The notes beneath the pieces were generated by a model. The model ran no database searches, had not been told where the DNA came from, and saw nothing but the letters and a program-made list of their open reading frames with translations. This document shows, piece by piece, positions 26,295 to 64,000 of a stretch of 64,000 bases of DNA (the stretch's first letter is position 1; each line of letters begins with the position of its first letter). The position numbers were made by a program, and so were the translations under genes. Source of the stretch: Lingula anatina (lineage: Eukaryota > Animalia > Brachiopoda); contig CM120646.1 in NCBI GenBank assembly GCA_051362555.1, forward strand, positions 13,020,001 through 13,084,000. Reading direction: 5' to 3'.

Positions 26295-26523
26295 AAACGG
26301 TTTGCAACACTAACGTGCCAGGGGTATTTTCCGTCTCTTAAACACTGACAGGAGTTTCAATAGTTTTATATAGTATGATGTTAGGGTAGCGTAGAGTGGT
26401 ATATTACAGGACCCCCCTCCTTACAACATGACATGCTTCATGTGTGCCAATCTCATTTAACACTTGTAACTGAAGATTGTAATCATTCCACCAGACCCTT
26501 TTCAAATTGTTTTCCAGAACACC

Positions 26524-46240
<19,717 letters not shown>

Positions 46241-48707: not shown

Positions 48708-49858
48708 ATGCTGAGATTAAAGCAGTCAATACGGCCGCCTTTGGCCCTCTTGTTAATGCTACTGAGTTTTAAGCCAGGGAATTGTGATGAATATGGTGAG
48801 TAGAAAACCGGAATTTAAAAGAAGTAATTAGAAATAAAAAGTTTAATTTGGTCTTTATTTTGTTAACTTTGCTGATGCGTTTGATAAATCGTACATTTTA
48901 AAATAATGCTACTTGTAACTCGGTGAGAACGAGTGAAAATATTACAGTGGTACAAAGGTTCTATTTTTTTTTCAATTTATGTTTGAGTTTGAATGAATGG
49001 CAACTGAAAGTCCGGTATTTTGCTTATTTATAATGCCGATTTTGGAAAAAAGAGGGTCTTTTTTAATCTACAGAGGCTTGTCATTCAAGTAACTAATATA
49101 ATTTTCACTTCTTACTTATCATGGAAATAAGAATTAAGCACAATGCAGCTGTAAGTGTCATAGTTTCAACCACTGTTATCGTATTTTATCACATTTTGTT
49201 TCAGCAAACTGCCGCAGTCCTCTAGGAATGCAGTCTGGCGACATTCCAGACTCTGCCATCACAGCGAGCTCATCGTATGAAGTGGAGACTGTAGGTGCCA
49301 AATTTGCCAGGTAAGGTGGTTTTTACTCGTTGGAATGCTATAATGAAAAAATAAGGGTTATGATCCCCCCTCCCCCTGAAAAAAACTTTCCTAGGGTTGG
49401 CGCCCGTCTGTTTATAACTTCATGGTGTCGGTGACATATAGAGGACACTGCTAGGGCCATATATGTATATAGATATTGAAAATAAGCTTCGAATAAATAG
49501 CATGCGAATAGGTACAAGGAAAATTTATGAATGCAATATTACCAATTCAAACCTGTATGAAGTGGGAGTATATTCTTTGTGAAAAAGACGGCTCAGTTAA
49601 TTGTCGAAGATTTTTTTATCAGCATTCATTGTAATTTAATCATATATATATATATTGTTACTGCATTTCCAGAATTCGTACAGAGGAGAAAGGGGGAGCA
49701 TGGTGCCCACGCCATCAGATTGCACCCAATGTGTACGAATATCTCCAGATTGATCTCCAGTCATTGCATGTGATCACAACGGTGGAGACCCAGGGACGGT
49801 TTGGAAATGGGCAGGTCAGTGGTGCATACATGTGCACACATGCGCACACGCGCACTGG

Positions 49859-49900
<42 letters not shown>

Positions 49901-52035
49901 CAGTCCCAGGAATGGCAGTTCGGAGCCCCATATGATTAGTACAGGTCAGGGTTTGTCGGATTATTGGGGTTAGTATATGGGACGAGTGTCACCTGTATAG
50001 TGCAAAGTGACGGGAAACGGACTACCTGGTTCTTTGCGGACTACCATTCCTGTCACACCGGTTGTTCGGTCCGTAACCATACCGAATCCAGTCATGCGCT
50101 ATGGTATAGTTGCTGTTGAAGCCAACATTTGTTCTTTTTTCCTCAATAAAATGTGTTGTTGATAATTACAATGCTATCCACCCATTTCTTCACATGTTCT
50201 GATTTTAGGGGCAGGAGTATATGGACAAATACCTGTTAGAATACAAGAGGGAGGAGGATGAACCCTGGACAAAGTACAGGGATGAAAAGGGACCCAAGGT
50301 ATGTCTATGGCAACTAGGTTCCCACTCAGCTACCAATGAACCACGGCAGGGGCGGATTTAGGCCGTCTTCTGGGTCTTCTGGAAGACGGTCAGATTTTCA
50401 AGTTTACATTGTCAGCCATCTAATGTTTTCTGTCGGAAGACGGTCAAAAATGGAACATGGATCAACAAAGATAATTTGGAAGACTGTCAGAAAATATCTC
50501 TGGATCCGCCCCTGCACGGTGCATATAACTTCTAGAATTTTTGAATCAACAATTGTCATAGAGCTAACAAAACGTTCTCTGTTTAAGCTAGGCCACTCGT
50601 TTGTCCTTGTTCTGCTTCAACAGTCACTGGAATAAGATTCTGTCAATGGGTGACCTTTGCATATCAAATATCACATTTTATAATTTGCCAAGAGGAGCTT
50701 GCCACAAGGGACACCACCCAGGTCGTTATTACAAGGATATAACTATGCCTGTGTCTTGGTCTCGACTACTGATAGTAAACATGACTAAATAATTCCTCAT
50801 GTTAAAAAAACAAGAATCATCCACCCAAGGGCACTTGCACCCCTAGGAATATTAAGGTTCTATAACTGTTTTCCTCTAAGTAAAACATGCAATACAAATA
50901 CTGTTACATATAAGATTATTCACCTATAAAAAATCCAACTATTAAGCAGCCCAGTGACCTCTCACCTAAGTGTTTTTCTTCAAAGTAAAACGTACATGAT
51001 AAAACTGTTTGATGAAACATTGATAAGTCCGAGAAAAAAACTAAATAAATGTAAAAAAAAGAGAAATTATTAAGCGCCCCCTGGACCCCACCCACATGGA
51101 TATCTTTATGCCACTGATGGGTCTTGCCTGAAGATAAAAAATAACATCAATATGTTTTGTCTTTTAGATCTTCCAGGGCAATACAAACACTTACCTAGCC
51201 GAGCAAAGGGCGGTGGATCCTCCAATTATAGCCAGGAAGATCCGTTTTGTACCGTATAGTGACAAACCCAGCACTGTCTGTACAAGGGTGGAGCTCTATG
51301 GATGCCCGTGGGGAGGTAAGAACGCGGGGAAAGGCCGGGGGTGTTGGGGGTGGGGTAGAAAGCGATTTCGCCTGAACGAAAAGTATGATGCATATGTAAT
51401 GCAACAGGTAACCTATGATTGAGTATTTGATGCTAGGAACGACTGTCGTGGAGTGGAATCCACTTGTTGGTGAGCCATTGATCTAGCTGATTGAAATCTA
51501 CTAGAGAGGAGTGGTCGCTGAAATTGTTGCGCTAAATGGTGTCATAAGGGTGCATATTAAGAGAAAAGGCAGATCAGTTCAATTTCTGGACGTTCCTCTG
51601 CAGAATGAAATGTTTGGCAACGCTTGCACGTTGAGGGCAAGTTGTGGAATGACTAAAAGACCTATCCTTTGGAGATATGGCATTACCAGCTACATCAAGA
51701 TTTCATTCATTACCCAAAGTTTTACTTCAGCTCCCTAAATTATTAAAATAATCACTTTTAACGGGTGCAAAATTTATGTTATTGCAACAAAGTTGAAGTG
51801 GATATGTCATCCAATATAGAATATTGACATTGTCTTAGAATTTTTATAATGTAATAATAGTAGATATGGTACACTTCTAAATCTTAAAAAGCGGGTGATC
51901 CTAACTTCTTTTGAGAAGTTGATTATGTAAATCTTGAGATCAGGTTAATATTGCTGTGTAGGATTTGTTGTCACCCCATTCGTGTAAGCAGATTATAATT
52001 CAGCACCCTTTTCAACTTTTCCAGGGTCCAGTTAA
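48708..52035 (+). CDS. DDR-like discoidin (FA58C/DS) domain protein: signal peptide + one DS domain, apparently ~194 aa and secreted
   Basis: Exons 48708-48795, 49205-49310, 49673-49814, 50209-50298, 51168-51315, tentative last exon 52025-52035. CRSPLGMQSGDIPDSAITASS, GGAWCP, EYLQIDL, ETQGRFGNGQGQEY, FQGNTNTY, DPPIIARKIRFVP, CTRVELYGCPW resemble the DDR1/2 DS domain. The 3' end is uncertain. Confidence 0.8.
50347..50514. mobile_element. Short TIR element with 5-bp TSD (hAT5-like)
   Basis: CAGGGGCGGAT...ATCCGCCCCTG flanked by CACGG on both sides; a half-site CAGGGGCAGATCCAGG also at ~22915. Confidence 0.7.
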
Positions 52036-53715: not shown

Positions 53716-56700
53716 CTATGCATCGCATTCGTTAGACAAGTCATATATCGGGTTTTGGAAACCGACTTGGTCGCCGGCCTTGCCGCTGGATGACGTTTTC
53801 TTTGAGCGTATCTTGGGAGGCACATTAGGCGAATCGCTGTTATCTAGAATTAAAACTTTATCCTCTGGCCCACTCCGTCTGCGTCTGCAAGGTAAGCAAC
53901 TCAACTGATATTTTCCAAGTTACAAGTCAAACAAGATGAAATATTTGCATTATACTTGTCACATCAAGTTCATAGTTTTCCGCTACAAACTATATCCCCA
54001 AGTGGTCCATTTCTAAGAAAAAAAAACGAATGAAATTCAAATATTAAACATACGTTATGGAAGTATATCTGACGAGAATGAAAAAAGCTCGCAATACAAC
54101 TCATTCAGTTTATCCCAACTACTCACCGACATATTACAACGGTGACTACTATTAACACGATAATAGCGACCAACCCTGCCGCGCCGCCTCCTATAAATGT
54201 CGCATTTTCTGAAACAATACAAACCTATGTGTATTGATTGCTATAGCATTTACTTGGATATGGATTGTACTTGCTGGGCAAGGGGTGGTTGTACAGGAGG
54301 GAAGAGTTATTAACTGTCTCGAATATTGATATTGCCAAGAAACATCAACGGTGGTTTCTGCGCATTGAATTGCATCGCAAAATATATATTTTATTAACAA
54401 TTACCAAGTACTGTTGATGTTTACTTACAGAGTTTCAGAGAATCCGTGTGTAATTCAAATATTGAGATAGGACTTGTATACAAACTCTTGAATTGATGAA
54501 CAAAGACACTGGTTACGGATCTAGTAAGCTGACTGAGAGTGTTGCTTTGAAATGTGAACCACGCATGCTCACAACTGTCCCCTCACCTTTCAAAACGGAT
54601 ACAACTCCACTCCCAGTTTGCCTCTCCACGCCTGGCCTCGAAGGGGGAACGATCGGAGTCGATGATTTGACTGGTGTGGACTTCCCCGGTTTAGGCGAAA
54701 CTGTTTCCCTCGACTTGGAAGTGTTTGGGATATTTGTAGGCGAAGAGGTGTCATCAGGCGTTACAATTTGCTTGCTGATAGTTATGCCAGGATCCGTCTT
54801 CTTTGATGGTTTTGAATTTAGAGTAGTCACCTTGGTTCCAGGAACCGTTTTTGAAGTGATGGGCCTGCTCATTGTGGTAGACCTAGTAAACGCTGTAGGT
54901 GTTTCGGTGGTGGTAGTACTTATTGGTATTGTGGTTGTAAGTATGGGGGTTGTTGTTTTTGGTGTTGTGTTTTTTGCTGTGAGGGTTGTAGTTGCAGTTG
55001 TTAGGGATGCGGTTGCAGTCGTAGAAGTTGTGGTTGGAGGGATTATAGTGGTAGTTGTTGGTGTTGTAGTAGAAGTTGTTGGGGTTCTGGTTGTTGATGG
55101 CGTTGTGGCTGTAGTTGTGGGAGTTGTAGTGGTCGTTGTAGTTGTTGGTGTTGTGGTTGTAGTTGTGGGAGCTGTTGTTGTTGTAGGTGTTGTAGTTGTA
55201 GTTGTTGGTGTTGTGCTAGTAGTTGTAGGTGTTGTAGTTGTTGGTGTTGTGGCTGTAGTTGTGGGAGTTTTAGTGGTTGTGGAAGTTGTAGTGGTTGTTG
55301 TTGGTGTTGTGGTTGTAGTTGTGGGAGTAGTTGTTGTAGGTGTTGTAGTTGTAGTTGTGGGAGTTGTTGTTGTTGTAGATGTTGTAGTTGTAGTTGTTGG
55401 TGTTGTGCTAGTAGTTGTGGGAGTTGTTGTTGTTGTTGGTGTTGTTGTTATAGTTGTTGGTGTTGTGCTAGTAGTTGTAGGAGTTATAGTAGTAGTTGTT
55501 GGTGTTGTGGTTGTAGTTGTGGGAGTTGTTGTAGGTGTTGTAGTTGTAGATGTTGGTGTTGTGGTTGTAGTTGTGGCAGTTGTAGTGGTAGTTGTTGGCG
55601 TTGTGGTTGTAGTTGTTGGCGTTGTGGTTGTAGTTGATGGAGTTGGAGTTGTAGATGTTGGTGTTGTGGTTGTAGTTGTGGGAGTTGTATTGGTTGTTGT
55701 TGGTGTTGTGGTTGTAGTTGTGGGAGTTGTAGTGGTTGTAGTTGGTGTTGTGGTTGTAGTTGTGGGAGTTGTAGGGGCAGTGGTTGTCGTTGTAGTTGTA
55801 GGGGTTGTTGTTGTTGAGGGCATCGTACTCGTAGTGATACATTGACCTTTGACCACGCTGACGTCATCAATAGCAATATCACTGTAGGTGCTGTTTCCAA
55901 CTTTTGCCTCAAATACTATCTGGTGCCGGCCGCCAGGTATGTTAATTTCAGCTAATTGCCACTCCTCTTTGCCGTACGCTGGTAATGAAATGAAACAAAA
56001 GATATACGAGGAACTTTAGGGCAACATATTCCAAAACCTAACCGGCAAACTTTGTACTCATCTGAACACTCAGTATGGTACGTTCAAATGATTTGAGCAG
56101 AGAACAATGTACTGTCAATTTCAAAGAGCAGGTGCTTGATTGTAATTACCTGTGATTCGTATTTTAGGGATCAACACGATGATCGATGGGCTGTGAGATG
56201 ATGAATTATAAATATGACTCAATGGGTCTAAGACGTTCAGTCGCAACTATTTCTGATAGAAATCGTTTCCCCAGGGGAGGTTCACTTAAATCTGGATTTG
56301 TTGACTTTCTTTATCTCAACCCTACTTTTTTGTCTTCTCAACTCTCAGACCGTGGTTTTGTATTCTGCGCCTCTTTAACCGCGGTTTTAAACAAGAAAAA
56401 TATCCGAACTAACTTAAATCTAATTTTGTTAAATATGTCATCCGACAACAGCATTCGTTAACATATAAAAACAAAATCCGTTATGCTATCTGTTCACTCC
56501 GAGGCGTGGGGCAAATGATTATTATAGTTAGCCGTGTTGTTATAAACACTGATGTCCTTTCAATATGCCTTGGCAATTAAGGGACAAGTTCGCGAGGCTA
56601 CCTACGTAAGCAGTATCCAGCGAGAAAAGTTTTGTCACTAGTTAGACACCACGGTAAGCCGGTGAAAGTGTCATCCAAGGTACAGGTGGAGTACCAGTGA

Positions 56701-59700
56701 CCATTATACTGGAAGGGGAAAAGACAGGCCGCACCATTTGCTCTTCCACCATAAGTTATATTTGTACTCACTAAAAAAAACGATATATGTCATGATTTGC
56801 ATAGCCTGAATAATGCTGTTGAATTACTGTCTTCACATATGTGTGTCTGAATCATGAACACCAGCATTCAATTATTTCAACAGAAACGAAAATAATGTGC
56901 ACTGCCATTAAACTGTTTCATTTCTTTCCAAAGAAGTGACCATGGTTGCGGTGACTGTAAAATGCTGTGATTTGGTACTTTGATCAGTTTTATAGTCATA
57001 ACACAATTCCCAAGGGCAAAATTAAAGAAGTACAAAAGAAAGAACAGTAACAGGCTCTCTTTACATTCCTTACCTGTGCCAGTAATTTCTATCACATTAT
57101 ATTCCCTGTTTCCTGTAACTCGATATACCTGAAGTGTCCCAACATCAATACCGAACATGTAGAAGTAGAAGCGCAGGCACGTGGGTCCAGAGTGAGAAAA
57201 CTCCGTTGATATCACACGCCCCTTTCTATTGCCAATACCAAGCGCAGAGTCGATGTACAAATAATGTCCTGAAAAGTATACAAGTGGAGTATTCCTGGTG
57301 AAAATTCGCTAAAATCGACTCGCTCCGCTTTTTCTGTAAGGAATTAGTGCGTATTTACAGGGGCTAAGTTCACTTGGGCAGATTCACTGTGTTTTTGGAA
57401 CACATTTATTGTTATCAAACTTGAAATTTTTTGTCACTGCCCATGCCTAACATAAACGAGATACAGAGGCTAGAAACTGTATGAAGACAAATGTGCCCTT
57501 TAAGACTGTGTTCCCATAAGCCCATGATACCAGCTGGATCGATCTTCTCGCTAAAGCGTTTTTACTTTAATAATCTCAATTGTCTGGCACGCCCCCTTGG
57601 GTAACTAGGGGTAATTTATTATCGCTAATTACTCCCTAGCAGATTGAGTAGGCGTGCCAGACATTTAAGCCGCTCACACTGAATGCAATTTAGCGAGAAT
57701 CCCAGTAGAGTGAGATCGATCCAGCTAGTACGATGGATTTTTCCGTCATAACAGTAGCCAGTACCTGAAGTGCTGTTAGTAAAACCAATGGTATTATCCA
57801 GCTCTGGACCCGTATACAAGTTCTTTGTGCCACCGCTGGCGAGCGTCCAGTTCTGGCCATCTTGACCGTCCATTTTAAAGCCACACATAGGGTCAGCCTG
57901 GCCCTCGAAATTGCACTGAAACAAGAGGTCATTAGGGGAAGGTGTGGGTGCCACTGGAAACACTGGAATGAAAAATAATTAAATCCAATTAAGATAGAAG
58001 CAGAGTATAATTTAATATTTCCATCGTATTTTATATGATTTTAATGACTTAAAAGTCCCGAACGCGTGCATTTCAATAAATTCTCACATGCATTTTAAAT
58101 AGTCAGCATGGCCTTAGTATTCCTAAGTCTAAATGGCGTTATTTGATGAGATGGGACTACAATGTGTTGTGAAGAAATGATAAATTCGAGGTAATATATC
58201 AGACCTGGGCATCCTCCCTCCGAGACCACTAAATCATCGATGCCATATTCTCCAAACTTGCTGGCTGACAGGGACACCTCAATGATAAGGTCGATCACGC
58301 CTTTGTCGAGGATTTCCGCAGAACCTTTTACCCATGATTTTGTACCAGAGGCTGGAACACATTTGAAGATATTAATCATCGTTCTTTTTAGTTCTTACGA
58401 AAACAATTCTTTACTTTTCTTTCAGATTAATTTTATGCAGAAATAACAAACATTCTTCTTGTGATAAAATAATATTAAAAATGTGTAAAACATTTTGCCT
58501 TGAAACATTTCATCAAAACGAGCATGATAGCGGAAGTATTTTATTTACATTATCTTAGGCATACAAGGCCAGAAAAGTCACACATTTAGACACCAGGCAC
58601 TAAGTAAAGAGGGTCCCTTTCCCTATTAAAAAAAACCTTGTCGGTAGAAGCAACAATTTCGCTGCCCAAGCTGCTCTCCGCGAAAGTGTGGTACGGTCCG
58701 CTATAAGGTCCATACTTACTGTAACACCGACCGTGGCTGAACTTTTCACGGGGTTTGCTGGTGGCGCACCATGGTCCGGCGACGGAATCCTCCAGCGTAC
58801 ACCCATCAACAGTTCTGTCTCTGTAATGGAATGGAAACACGCAGGGTGGGCCATGTTGGTTGCCCTGATCATCATACGTCCTGTGTGTTGAGACTGAAAC
58901 AGGAAAAACAGACAAATAAAACGATGAAAAATACAGGTTATTATTAGTGAAAGAAGGAAAAAAAGACAACCAATTTTAAGGGAATAATACATAATACATT
59001 AAAAATGCCACAAAGAGACCGATGTATGTTTGTATAGTATTCACAATATACGTAGGCCTACTGCAAATTCTAGCTTACTTTCACCGGTTTTCTGCCATAG
59101 CAGCTTCGGGTTACGCCCTAACGTTCGCGTGAAGAGAGTCAGGTTCCCCATATCTATTCCATAGGCGTGGTAATAGAACGTTGCACACCGTCTTCCGGTT
59201 CCAGGAATGTCGGGTACAACAAGCCTCGCTTTGGCCCCCAACACGGCAGTGTCCGTTTTCACATACACGAAGCTTCCTGTAAACAAGATTGGCATCTTAC
59301 TTCTGTTGTCTTGGTTTGATAAGATGTATCAAGTATGGAATGTCCAGCCGAATGCCAGATGAAAATACATCGTAAATCACCGTATAGATCTTGTATAAAA
59401 TGTAATAAGTATTAGTCAGATATAAAAAAATCTACTAGCGCTGTTTGGTACAATGCTCAAGCTTTCGGTTTGCTGCTAACTCCAGGGACTCAAGTTTGAA
59501 GAAGCCTGAAGAAAGCAGCAAACCGAAGGCCCTGACATTGTTCCAAACACAGTATTATCTTTAAAGATGCATTTAAATCTGACTTATTACTTTAGGTAAA
59601 AATACAAACACGTTCGTAAATTGAGAAAAAATTTACAATCTGTTTACAATCGGCCCTTTCGGTTTGTCAGAAAAACGGACATAACAATGTTTTTCATATA

Positions 59701-62700
59701 GGTAGTGTCAACTGTCCTGGCCGATGGCGTTCATTTATAATGAATGAACAAAATACACTTTTTATTTAAATAATCATATCTGGTGTGTTCATTGTGTACA
59801 TAAGCAAAATACCATACTTCAGGGACATATGGCTGCATGGCTACTCCTCTCTTACCCGAGCCTGTGGTGTGGTCGTACATAGGCCCCGTATACGAGCTAC
59901 CGGTGGTGCCGTACACCCACGCCCAGTCAAAGTCATCTGTGTTGTCTTGCTTTATGCCGCAGAGAGATTTTTCGTCAAAGTTACAGGAGAAAGGCAACCC
60001 AATTGGGCCACCCGATGGTGGGATATTCGTGGCCGCTGAAGGTGACACTTGCTTGGAAGTCAATGCTGGAGTTGTTAGTTCAGCAGGACTGGTCCCAGGG
60101 CAATTCACAGGCAATGGGGTCGTTTGAACGCAGGTGCCCTTTACAATAGATATATCATCTATTGCAATGTCACTAAAGATACTATTCCCTGTGGCAACTT
60201 CGAACAAAACCCGTTGGCGGCCAGCTGGGAGGTCAATTTCGGTCATTTGCCAGGTTTGGTTTCCATACGCTAAATACAGTGACGAAATTGGTATACGTAG
60301 TAAAAGGAGATCAAGTGATAGTTATCGGAAAGATGCCACATTTATGCAACACATTTAATTTCACTTCAGCCTTTAGTCTTTTTTCAAATAATAATGATAA
60401 TAATAATAATAATGATAAAAACACATTTCGGTTGCCCTCAACTTTAACTAAATATTAACTAACCAATTAATTTCAATGCGAGCTCGAATGTTTTCCTACA
60501 AATTCGCTGTCTGCTTTAATTATCATACTATGAACTGTAATTAATATATAGTCTTTCAAATAATATTTGCTTTTTGTGCCTTGTATGAGAAACATAAGAA
60601 ATAATAATCTATTTGAGAAGGGATTCTCGTTAGTGGTACTTACGCAAGCAGTAACCGTATTTGAAGCCGGCTGTGTCTGCCATGCACCATGGCAGTCCAT
60701 TGCTTGTATCCCGTAATGTACATCCGTAGTGGTCAACATTGACGTACGTAAAGGGGAAGGCACATCCAGCCCCTCCTGCATTGCCACCATATGTTAAATG
60801 TGTTGTAACTGAAATGATATCGATAATATGATAACACAGACGGTTAAGTGTTTTAATTTGAAATGAGTATAATGTTAGGTGTTTTAAACGAAATAAGGAT
60901 AACTACATGTATTTTAGGGTTGACTTATTGCCGTTCACGAAATACTGCTTCCCTTTTTGATCAGGCCCCTGTTTCATAAAAAAAAAAAAAAAAAACTTAA
61001 GTCAGGTTCCCTGGCTAAGAACGTAATTACCAAAGCTAAATGGGCACATCTCACCCTATCAGGAGTAGTGTAACAGCACTCTCATAGAAATCTTAGTCAA
61101 CTTAGCCAGGGGACTGACTTAAGTTTTTTAGTGAAACTGGGGCAAGGTGCTTAATTTTAAAGTTGACTTTATGTAATCAAATGCCACACTTCATGCTATT
61201 TTTGCCTCAATTGAAGAAACTGCTATTGTTCAGCCCTAAGTAGGAGAGTTAAAACGAACTAGGTAAAGAAAAACGCTGCGTTTGTGCCAAGAGTGTGCCC
61301 AATACCTTTTCCAGTGGTTTCCCACAAAACATTCTCCTTGGAACCCGTCACACTGTACACCCGTAAAGTTCCGACATCTATGCCGAAAATGTAGTAATAA
61401 AATCGAAGGCACAGATTTGACGTTTGACTTAAGGTACCGGAGACCAGGCGGCCTAGAGAGTTCCTCTCTCCATCGCCAGCGTTGGCATATATGTAACGGC
61501 CTATTTTATGTACAACAAAATATACAAAAATAATGAAGAAAAGATTAGAAAAATACGACAAAACAACAAAATGTAAAGAATAAGTGAATAAATCATACAT
61601 TCCTGTACAAGTACACTGAAAAGATGTGTTTGCAATTACAAATTACACATATTCAAGTCATATTGAACTATTTACTTGTATAGATGCCTGATGGCCAACA
61701 GACGGATGTATTTTAAGGGTGTGTTGGCGGACAAAATCGTGACAGATTCAAATGTCATAAATTGTATCAGGCTACCTGTACTGTACAGAAGTTTAACAAA
61801 GAGATATTTATTGTGTAGTAACATGTACATGTACCTTTGGCATTCCCACTTTTCCCACACGTGTTATCTGTCTCTGGCCCAGTGTAATCTGTATTAGTAG
61901 AACCGCTTGCCACATTCCAACCGATGGAATTTCTACCTGAAACCGACTGGGCCAGTCCGCAACTAGATGGTTCACTTGAGCTTTCAAAATCGCAGTGATA
62001 AACTACTTCATTCGGCGAATACGTTGGACCTACCGCCGGGACTGAAAATACAAATTGTGGACGAGTGTGTATGATTCGTGCCAAGTTAAATCTTAATGGA
62101 TCCATCTTGTACATGTACTGAAGGTCTTCTTGAAGCATTTGTGGAACATTTATCATCTGCACAATGTTTTCAAACCTACATTCCTCAGAATCAAAAGTAA
62201 AAACTTCCACCAAAGAACATCTTCACAACCAAAATTTAAATGTTGTTTTAACCAAGTCTAATGTAAGCCAAAGAAAACCCCGCCACAATGCTGATCAGAA
62301 TTATGTATCATAATTACGTGGACATTTTCCCTCAGTGATAACAATGTCGTCTACTGCCAGGTCTCCAAAGCGACTGTCCGACAGCGTGGCCTCTATAACA
62401 AGATCGCCAGCACCGGGTGGGAGATCAACACTGCCTTGTAACCAGGCCCTACTGCCACTAGCTAGTGAAAAAATAATGCCCATGAAATAATCATTTAACA
62501 TAAGCCCTGCGAAGTGACCATGTACCTTAGAAGAGAAACAAGTAGAAATGTATATAAAGTGGCAATCATACTTATTTCTTCTTCAATGCAAATAACATGG
62601 ATTTATTACAGGCAAAGAAACACATTTTCGCTTACAAGTGGTATACAAAAAGTACGAGGGCAGCATTTAACTAAGGGATACGCTATTTATCTTTGCATAT

Positions 62701-64000
62701 ATTTTACACAAGAAGTGATTGGCCGAAGGAGAGAAAAGTGAAACACAAACGCCGGGCTGTACTACAAAAACACATGCAAATTAACTGTAACTGGCGTAAT
62801 ATTTCAAGAAACATTCATTCGATTCGTACACCCGTGCATTTACTTACTAAAACATCGTCCAATTTCAAGCTGAGGGTCAAAGCGGATGATACACCAAGGT
62901 TTATCATTGAGCGACTCTTCCAATGTACAACTATGGTATATTTGATTCTTATATGTGAATGGAAAGATACACGGAGGACCGTTCATATTGCCAGCATCGT
63001 CATACGTCTTGTTGGCCACTAAAACATAAACACAATTATAGGTTAAGCATCAATAAATCAATTCAAACGTCAATGATGTTTAATGGCAAAAAAAATATAA
63101 AATTATCATTTATGAATGGTTAAGAATATGTAAATTAATGGCATTTTGATTTTAGAATACTTAAATAAAAAAGAGAAGACGTACAACACTAAAGAGATTA
63201 CCTTCTCCGATTTTTTGCCATAAAAGAATACGTGATTGGCCCTTTAGCTGATAGTAAATGGACAGGTTCCCCATGTTTATACCAAAAGCGTGGTAATAGA
63301 AGGACAGACACCTGGAGCCGTAGCCTGGCACATCATGTAACACCAGGCGTGATTGGTCACCTTCTGAATGGCCGTCAGGCTGTACAAAGACGTAGCTACC
63401 TGTGCACAAAACGACGTTTGCAGAATTACTCCTCAAGCATAGTAAACTACATGTATGTCTTTCTTGGACTTACAAAATTAATGAGAATAGAACAAACGTC
63501 ATATTGAACAGCATAGGGAGCTGTTTATTTAAATATTTGTATTTTCTTTATCTTATCAACTACATATTCGGGTTAAATGGACTAACAGATATACCATCAG
63601 ATCAAGGAGAGACCGCGTAGCTTTCAAAGATTAAAGAAGATAAGCTCAAGGAAAAAGTCCCTTATCCAATTGCGTACCTCTGCCAATTTAAAAAGTAAAG
63701 CATACTTCTGTAAGTATGACATATGACATAGAGACAACTTCAAATGGTAATACAAGATAATGCCGCCAACGACAATAAACCCACCAGAACCGCTGGTATG
63801 GTCATACATTGGGCCTGTCAAATGCATGTATTGAAAGTCTGCTGGACCCTCTTCCCTTATCCAGTCGAATTCGTCTGTCTGATCTTGAACTATCCCACAG
63901 AATGTTGGGTCATCAAAGTTACAAGAAAACACCTCCGCCTGTGGCGCTAATGTCGCCGTTGTAATCGATCCGGTAGACGTCAGCACTGCTGGGGTCACGT
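53716..64000 (-). CDS. Type I membrane receptor (5' part outside window): 4 x [MAM with inserted FN2] - Thr/Pro mucin stalk - TM - FxNPxY tail
   Basis: Exons >64000-63785, 63399-63202, 63018-62848 (FN2), 62461-62318, 62041-61835, 61500-61306, 60808-60644 (FN2), 60269-59856, 59276-59085 (or 59079), 58893-58720 (FN2), 58351-58205, 57962-57765, 57268-57074, 56770-56606 (FN2), 55978-54587, 54190-54127 (TM GGAAGLVAIIVLIVVTVVICR), 53884-53716 (..GFQNPIYDLSNECDA*). Confidence 0.85.
55020..55835 (-). repeat. Coding Thr/Pro-rich mucin-type tandem repeat (PTTTTTT-like units)
   Basis: ~270 codons of mostly Thr with periodic Pro; degenerate (ACA/ACT/ACC)n with variable unit length. Confidence 0.9.
57504..57727. 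mobile_element. Second member of the 39732-39959 MITE family
   Basis: TAA|GACTGTGTTCCCAT start; cagctggatcgatct...agatcgatccagct and tgtctggcacgcc/ggcgtgccagaca arms. Confidence 0.6.
59405..59593. repeat. Imperfect inverted repeat in an intron
   Basis: aagtattagtcagat..tgtttggtacaatg..ttcggtttgctgct / agcagcaaaccgaa..cattgttccaaaca..atctgacttattactt. Confidence 0.65.
60965..61143. mobile_element. Hairpin MITE (Harbinger-like)
   Basis: GCCCCTGTTTCA..AAAACTTAAGTCAG..CCCTGGCTAAG / CTTAGCCAGGGGACTGACTTAAGTTTTT..TGAAACTGGGGC; flanks CAG/AAG. Confidence 0.65.

Follow-up and report, generated by a model that had tools for sequence, protein, structure and literature searches.

Can a fibronectin type II (FN2) module sit inside a MAM domain and, if so, what would a protein built in this way do? 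This question is raised by a gene on the minus strand of a 64,000-nucleotide stretch of DNA from the brachiopod Lingula anatina (GenBank assembly GCA_051362555.1, contig CM120646.1, positions 13,020,001 to 13,084,000 of the forward strand), which is called the window throughout. A first-pass annotation had proposed that four MAM domains in this gene are each split by an FN2 exon, forming a composite MAM[FN2] module in an endocytic receptor, possibly one for collagen. The nested architecture is very probably real and translated. In effect, 17 exons, running from 64000 to 53716, join as one frame of 1475 codons with zero internal stops (Table 1). In this open frame the order N-terminal (N), middle (M), FN2 and C-terminal (C) exon is found in all four units, and the four FN2 exon positions that had been proposed match to the base.

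The FN2 exons have the properties expected of exons of this gene. Each of the four has an AG acceptor, a GT donor, a length that is a multiple of three, and phase 1-1. The same is true of every exon from the first M exon through the exon that encodes the stalk. In the six frames of the window, the FN2 motif occurs four times, always between an M and a C exon. All four exons score as FN2, with 34.9-44 bits against a PF00040 gathering cut-off of 22.2 bits, and the four Cys, the C-x-F-P-F motif and the W-C core are invariant among them. They had been described as complete FN2 modules, which holds for the PF00040 identity and the four Cys but not for the C-terminal part, where neither the loop length nor the pocket aromatics are canonical. 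The Pfam match covers only positions 1-29 or 1-31 of 42, and the segment from Cys3 to Cys4 has 11-13 residues, whereas 14 is the mode among 453 fetched modules (308 of them).

That these exons interrupt a MAM domain is indicated by the exons on either side of them, which in unit 1 cover the PF00629 profile in order (1-38, 44-107 and 112-158). The other M exons match from 44 or 45 to 99-109, and the C part of unit 4 matches 112-157. Hence, the FN2 exon lies in each MAM between profile positions of about 107-110 and 112. Split MAM matches with PF00040 between the halves had been expected and are seen with Pfam, the half encoded by C exon 3 giving no Pfam match at E 0.01. The neighbouring SRCR/MAM gene on the plus strand provides a control. 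Its homologous loops are unbroken (SGNQGNAW at 32667-32690 and NGDQGNTW at 38602-38625), with the intron further on, in agreement with the earlier claim that the G-x-x-G-x-x-W loop is uninterrupted there.

Two gene models of the same species contain the insert. Among 246 candidates, a profile of the four FN2 exons matched 64 proteins, of which one, the RefSeq model XP_023932859.1, carries both PF00629 and PF00040; it is identical to unit 1 at 177 of 185 positions, with identical joins. Read-through into the intron after C exon 1 (62300-62318, minus strand) meets a stop after four residues, and XP_023932859.1 ends in this way, being a short isoform or else an artefact of the gene model. When this protein was used in an exhaustive HMMER search, the best 150 of 2208 matches included XP_013414005.1, the sole non-self match among them that spans the insert in one stretch. 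This paralog, a 650-residue L. anatina protein, has the order MAM, MAM[FN2], MAM. Pfam calls it MAM only and misses the FN2, which a profile from 345 outside FN2 modules finds with 25.1 bits.

Outside these two models, several surveys were negative. Among 852 middle-to-C junctions, from 132 MAM proteins of 217 fetched, FN2 is present only in XP_023932859.1 and XP_013414005.1, a count that does not show absence elsewhere because the set leans to long multi-MAM proteins. A homolog search with XP_023932859.1 for longer proteins found none in 685 candidates. A search with residues 281-456 of XP_013414005.1 gave 3 of 222 candidates, both non-self matches being plain MAM proteins, and a phage collection gave no match.

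The MAM fold is predicted to tolerate the insert. Residues 232-456 of XP_013414005.1 were modelled by AlphaFold from a 28-row alignment, with a predicted local distance difference test (pLDDT) of 82.6 and a predicted template modelling score of 0.76. In this model, MAM strands flank the insert on both sides, and the insert forms four short strands at pLDDT 51-84. Across the range 3-225, the model aligns over 163 residues with the MAM domain of SR-C (8yt7; Z 20.0, root-mean-square deviation 2.3), with which the meprin and enteropeptidase MAM domains tie as best structural matches. A first alignment (A3) was dropped, as it placed a MAM Trp under an FN2 Trp. The own model of the ESM Atlas for the same residues, which is independent of the chosen alignment, aligns with MAM clusters across the insert with a template modelling (TM) score of 0.67, and that of XP_023932859.1 does so over residues 1-190 with TM 0.61-0.63. 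No cluster listed there, among those of at least 50 members that are covered, has both MAM and FN2. A single-sequence model of FN2 exon 4 reached pLDDT 48.8, and the fold matches listed were filled by MAM-like folds with no FN2 chain among them. Of the structure that had been expected for one unit, the intact MAM sandwich is predicted for the paralog, whereas these models gave no structural confirmation of the FN2 fold. The composite MAM[FN2] reading stands on the split Pfam matches, the two RefSeq models, the lack of a published description in our searches and the intact MAM fold, the last taken from the paralog only.

The insert also appears to have been kept by selection. Between units, identity is 38-54% for FN2 exons and 26-63% for MAM exons, whereas the flanking introns score at shuffle level; since the FN2 exons are as conserved as the MAM exons, they are under selection. 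Units 1 and 3 share 51% identity and units 2 and 4 share 50%, versus 34-36% for cross pairs, and therefore an A-B pair seems to have been duplicated to A-B-A-B. A class 1-1 FN2 exon would first have entered a phase-1 intron in the MAM loop, and the A-B pair would have arisen before its duplication. In a tree of 29 rows with the inserts removed, units 1 and 3 group with the middle MAM of XP_013414005.1 (99/97), and units 2 and 4 pair apart from them (100/100); a single clade of all five Lingula insert-bearing MAMs was neither recovered nor rejected (approximately unbiased test, p-AU 0.147). A G-I-[DN]-[MV]-G signature is present in 5 of 5 of these MAMs and in none of 698 ordinary ones, the motif having been defined after seeing the five, and Ile occupies the first position in 9 of 319. 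This suggests adaptation of the host MAM to a constant FN2 partner.

What kind of protein carries these units? In the window, the predicted product has four MAM domains followed by a Thr-rich stalk, one transmembrane helix and a tail with FQNPIY. The stalk includes a 312-residue stretch in which Thr, Ser and Pro make up 91%. The transmembrane segment has a Kyte-Doolittle 19-mer peak of 3.0, with no other peak above 1.6 upstream, and the tail has 56 codons, with FQNPIY at 53760-53743. RNA evidence comes from the alignment of 4 of 9 listed raw-read runs, with a junction threshold of 3 reads, and only the intron between the stalk and the transmembrane exon passed this threshold (8 reads, in 2 of the 4 runs). 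The join from the transmembrane exon to the tail is predicted from phase, and this junction is absent among the reads of the four runs.

Some further features of the gene were observed. An in-phase AG at 54012 (53970-54012, minus strand) could yield an alternative short tail without NPxY; the candidate exon there was excluded from the gene model, as all it adds is a short tail that runs into a stop. An extra Cys in the N part of unit 2 (61835-62041) and an unpaired Cys in the linker after unit 2 (59856-60269) may form an added disulfide. Within the Thr-rich repeat (54900-55850, minus strand), RNA reads have go-back joints; either the arrangement varies between individuals or the reads come partly from other mucin-like genes.

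Table 1. Exons of the minus-strand gene, in order of transcription, with positions in the window
Feature	Position	Strand	Evidence
Unit 1 MAM N exon, at window edge	63785..64000	-	PF00629 1-38, E 1.5e-5; donor GT, phase 1
Unit 1 MAM M exon	63202..63399	-	PF00629 44-107; present in XP_023932859.1
FN2 exon 1 (A-type), phase 1-1	62848..63018	-	PF00040 E 2.2e-11; both flanks joined in XP_023932859.1
Unit 1 MAM C exon	62318..62461	-	PF00629 112-158
Linker and unit 2 MAM N exon	61835..62041	-	PF00629 1-44, E 0.002
Unit 2 MAM M exon	61306..61500	-	PF00629 45-109
FN2 exon 2 (B-type), phase 1-1	60644..60808	-	PF00040 E 1.5e-8
Unit 2 MAM C part, Pro/Thr linker and unit 3 MAM N part, single exon	59856..60269	-	PF00629, two stretches, E 1.2e-14
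Unit 3 MAM M exon	59079..59276	-	PF00629 44-109
FN2 exon 3 (A-type), phase 1-1	58720..58893	-	PF00040 E 1.5e-8
Unit 3 MAM C exon, divergent	58205..58351	-	No Pfam match at E 0.01; 50% identity to C exon 1; in frame
Linker and unit 4 MAM N exon	57765..57962	-	PF00629 1-38, E 0.0022
Unit 4 MAM M exon	57074..57268	-	PF00629 44-99
FN2 exon 4 (B-type), phase 1-1	56606..56770	-	PF00040 E 2.8e-10
Unit 4 MAM C part, then mucin-like Thr-rich stalk	54587..55978	-	PF00629 112-157; donor backed by 8 RNA reads
Transmembrane exon	54127..54208	-	Kyte-Doolittle peak; acceptor backed by reads
Cytoplasmic tail exon with FQNPIY (FxNPxY), then stop	53716..53884	-	Predicted phase-compatible join to transmembrane exon

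The product is read here, with a probability of about 0.5, as a scavenger-type endocytic receptor in which MAM[FN2] units on a Thr-rich stalk bind a ligand that is likely not collagen and are taken up through NPxY. It would be a type I membrane receptor in which the MAM jelly-roll stays intact and the FN2 is suspended from the loop that connects the W-x3-G strand to the W strand after it. The stalk, if O-glycosylated, is likely to hold the MAM[FN2] array clear of the cell surface; internalisation of the receptor via FxNPxY would then probably fall to PTB adaptors of the Dab2/ARH type. In known systems, NPXY is reported to recruit ARH and Dab2 (PMC6912373), and in shrimp SR-C the MAM domain is described as binding ligand, the receptor being internalised by clathrin (PMC5222524). 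In general, the mode would be like that of a class C scavenger receptor or a MAMDC4-type cargo receptor with an extra binding surface, and unlike that of uPARAP. The earlier designation as an endocytic receptor is plausible from the transmembrane segment and FQNPIY.

Several points weigh against this reading. Among the junctions listed for the four RNA runs, none crosses an FN2 exon, and in all four the depth over MAM and FN2 exons is 0 to about 1. The fold was predicted for a paralog rather than for the window gene, with its FN2 part at pLDDT 51-84, and the intact-MAM result was favoured because the 28 alignment rows were picked out of 47 so that MAFFT held the MAM halves in register across the gap. 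RefSeq models are predictions, and XP_023932859.1, with 190 residues, is a fragment that continues past C exon 1 into the intron. The gene runs on 5' past the window edge at position 64000, beyond which are its signal peptide and such other N-terminal domains as there may be. Finally, NPxY serves adhesion receptors too.

The last point leads to a rather unlikely alternative, in which the protein serves adhesion or a surface coat in the manner of zonadhesin or the transmembrane mucins. Here, MAM[FN2] would bind cells, mucus or matrix, the FN2 would block or redirect MAM oligomer contacts, and NPxY would connect to PTB scaffolds instead of driving uptake. MAM repeats on a long Thr-rich stalk suit such a role, as do reports that MAM drives oligomerisation in neuropilin and meprin (PMC5222524) and that NPXY motifs are found in integrin tails as well (PMC6912373). 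By contrast, no VWD or EGF domains are seen between the stalk and the membrane. The tail has FxNPxY with the upstream Phe, which matches the signal of the LDL-receptor type and also counts against such a role.

The absence of junction reads bears on two other explanations. The FN2 exons could be optional cassettes, the usual product being a plain four-MAM receptor and the FN2 forms minor variants. As all four are symmetric, skipping them keeps the frame, and no junction reads exclude it. Nevertheless, the loop left by skipping would be atypical, because its W-to-W spacing is 12 in all four units versus 10 in 221 of 223 ordinary MAMs. The insert is also included in both RefSeq models, and the host MAMs carry their signature, albeit a post hoc motif (5 of 5 versus 0 of 698), which together make a predominantly plain receptor quite improbable. 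Alternatively, the FN2 exons might be an artefact, that is, a nested gene or a decayed copy outside the splicing of this gene, for which the lack of direct junction reads in the four runs could be invoked. This is highly improbable, given that all four stand at the identical MAM position between phase 1-1 sites and without a stop, are conserved like the MAM exons, and have a counterpart in the insert of the paralog.

Most RNA reads at the locus belong to intronic repeat elements. These lie at 57522-57736, 59442-59549 and about 60970-61150; the first two have inverted arms and all are probably similar to miniature inverted-repeat transposable elements (MITE-like). Those near 57.6 kb and 61.1 kb account for the majority of loose-ended RNA reads. 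Where a bin contains FN2 exon 1, 2 or 3 and no other exon, the depths are 0.21, 0.1 and 0.63, values that are ambiguous between exon and intron origin and were not used as evidence.

Would a receptor of this kind take up collagen? An uptake receptor for collagen or gelatin similar to uPARAP/Endo180, with four FN2s for avidity, has several points in its favor. The FN2 identity is firm, with MMP-9, MMP-2 and fibronectin as best solved sequence matches of the window modules. The protein has a transmembrane segment and an NPxY tail, and collagen is reported to be present in Lingula shells (PMC4595640). In Endo180, the changes Y193A, R206A/D208A and Y219A are reported to have abolished gelatin binding (PMC4635314). 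When these positions are mapped onto the window modules by offset from the Cys residues, Y193 is found in 4 of 4, whereas R206, D208 and Y219 are each found in none, although R206 is rare outside MMPs in any case (50 of 401 other fetched modules). In the fetched MMP2/9 modules, by contrast, each mapped position of the gelatin pocket is kept in 22-23 of 23. Likewise, units 1 to 4 keep 1, 3, 1 and 2 of the four pocket aromatics, all four of which are kept in 22 of the 23 modules from MMPs and in 197 of the other 401: the W225 position is aromatic in one of four and the F227 position in two (Tyr in units 2 and 4, and Arg in units 1 and 3, the A units).

In units 2-4, the residue five places ahead of Cys4 is aromatic and might replace a lost one. 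However, there is a precedent in DEC205, which is reported to lose collagen binding with such changes (PMC10914487). Because R206, D208 and Y219 are lost and the pocket aromatics reduced, collagen uptake is the less likely reading and is considered unlikely here; the suggestion of a role like that of uPARAP/MRC2 was therefore not borne out, Y193 alone being kept and no C-type lectin or ricin domain being seen in the part of this gene that the window covers. In the scavenger-type receptor preferred here, the FN2 pocket would have been re-cut by a shorter last loop and, in the A units, by Arg at the F227 position. From these residues, it can be inferred that the pocket was remodelled, perhaps for anionic ligands in the A units.

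A further question is whether such nesting is confined to Lingula. When metagenomes were scanned with the FN2 profile, 46 loci matched, of which one, L042, encodes MAM domains. Its intronless frame has a signal-like start and six MAMs in 3515 bases. In the first MAM (219-941), PF00629 1-40 is followed by a complete PF00040 (1-42, 63 bits) and then by PF00629 42-158. The insertion site is thus the N/middle boundary, at which a phase-1 intron is present in each of the two window genes, and this FN2 is the only one among 829 N/middle junctions. The L042 protein, itself MALRD-like, shares 40-45% identity with the best matches fetched for it, those named among the top eight being MALRD-like proteins from hemichordates, lancelets, echinoderms and molluscs. 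Its FN2 is identical to the window FN2s at 20-22 of 57 positions and keeps the equivalents of Y193, Y219 and W225, and its MAM is without the Lingula signature. Since the site differs and is also a phase-1 intron position, FN2-in-MAM nesting likely arose at least twice, the L042 insertion being, from this one contig, a likely independent event. In the same scan, more than 20 marine metagenome loci (L011-L036) have a common 51% match to query FN2 positions 8-44, and no MAM.

More tentatively, and at somewhat less than even odds, the MAM jelly-roll may be a recurrent host of FN2, taken up separately at two phase-1 positions (107-112 in Lingula and 40-42 in L042), defining an unrecognised MAM[FN2] receptor family in which the Lingula module, with a MAM loop signature of its own and a reshaped FN2 pocket, co-evolved as one binding unit for a new ligand. 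More cases would be hidden, as split domains escape annotation, which happened with XP_013414005.1.

To our knowledge, the insertion of FN2 inside another domain is a textbook case only for the gelatinases. The arrangement described here is a new form of this insertion, in a new host fold and with a probable independent repeat. The earlier remark that it is not recognised from characterised proteins agrees with full-text literature searches, in whose titles and abstract openings no description of FN2 inside MAM was found; subscription journals and InterPro architectures lie outside this scope, and the architecture may be listed in databases and undescribed. In the main text of the Lingula genome paper (PMC4595640), none of 'MAM', 'fibronectin' and 'FN2' occurs, and one of its supplements is without 'fn2' and has 'MAM' in four places, of which two were checked. 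The main text of PMC13425148 has none of the three terms either. Domain gain by exon insertion into introns is reported to account for less than 10% of gain events (PMC2926785). The Lingula insertion falls inside a domain with the intron phases preserved, next to an unbroken control gene and with an apparent independent repeat elsewhere. Two MAM loops are thereby mapped as tolerating a domain of 55 residues, and the re-purposing of an FN2 pocket can be studied in a natural example. An annotation blind spot is revealed as well, as Pfam labels XP_013414005.1 MAM only.

The neighbouring plus-strand region (26470-46240) contains a transmembrane-like segment at about 26850-26950, SRCR and four ordinary MAMs, as well as an exon for a chitin-binding CBM_14 domain (44562-44888) and others for C-type lectin (45216-46237). 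It looks like a mosaic scavenger or lectin receptor. Further on, F5/8 type C (discoidin) exons lie at 49138-51419 on the same strand (PF00754 E 5.4e-5 at 49635-49970) and possibly belong to a separate DDR-like gene or to this neighbour.

Among known systems, zonadhesin resembles this gene in its MAM repeats, after which come a mucin-like stalk and a transmembrane segment. It differs in that no VWD or EGF domains are seen here, and FN2 inserts are not known in it. MALRD1/MAMDC4, the automatic name of both Lingula models, are large membrane proteins with tandem MAM repeats. They differ in having LDLa repeats between MAMs that are uninterrupted in the fetched set, whereas no LDL-receptor class A match was found in the window exons scanned, where the linker-bearing exons N2, C2N3 and N4 match PF00629 alone. 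Similarly, uPARAP/Endo180 (MRC2) and the mannose receptor family share a type I membrane topology, FN2 and an endocytosis motif in a short tail. Nevertheless, their single FN2 is a serial module, with a ricin domain before it and 8-10 C-type lectin domains after it; here, FN2 is nested in MAM and is followed by the MAM C part, the stalk and the transmembrane segment, with neither C-type lectin nor ricin domains in the part of the gene within the window. The class C scavenger receptors (Drosophila SR-CI, shrimp MjSRC and Spodoptera SR-C) are described as internalised membrane receptors with a MAM domain (PMC5222524). Their MAM 8yt7 tied for best structural match to the paralog model, but they have CCP domains and a single uninterrupted MAM, in contrast to at least four split MAMs here. 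SR-CI also has a Ser/Thr-rich stalk. Finally, in MMP-2 and MMP-9, FN2 modules sit inside a host domain as well, and these are the best solved sequence matches of the window modules. There, the host is a zinc protease that holds three tandem FN2s with an intact gelatin pocket, whereas in Lingula a MAM host holds one FN2 each, four times over, with a remodelled pocket.

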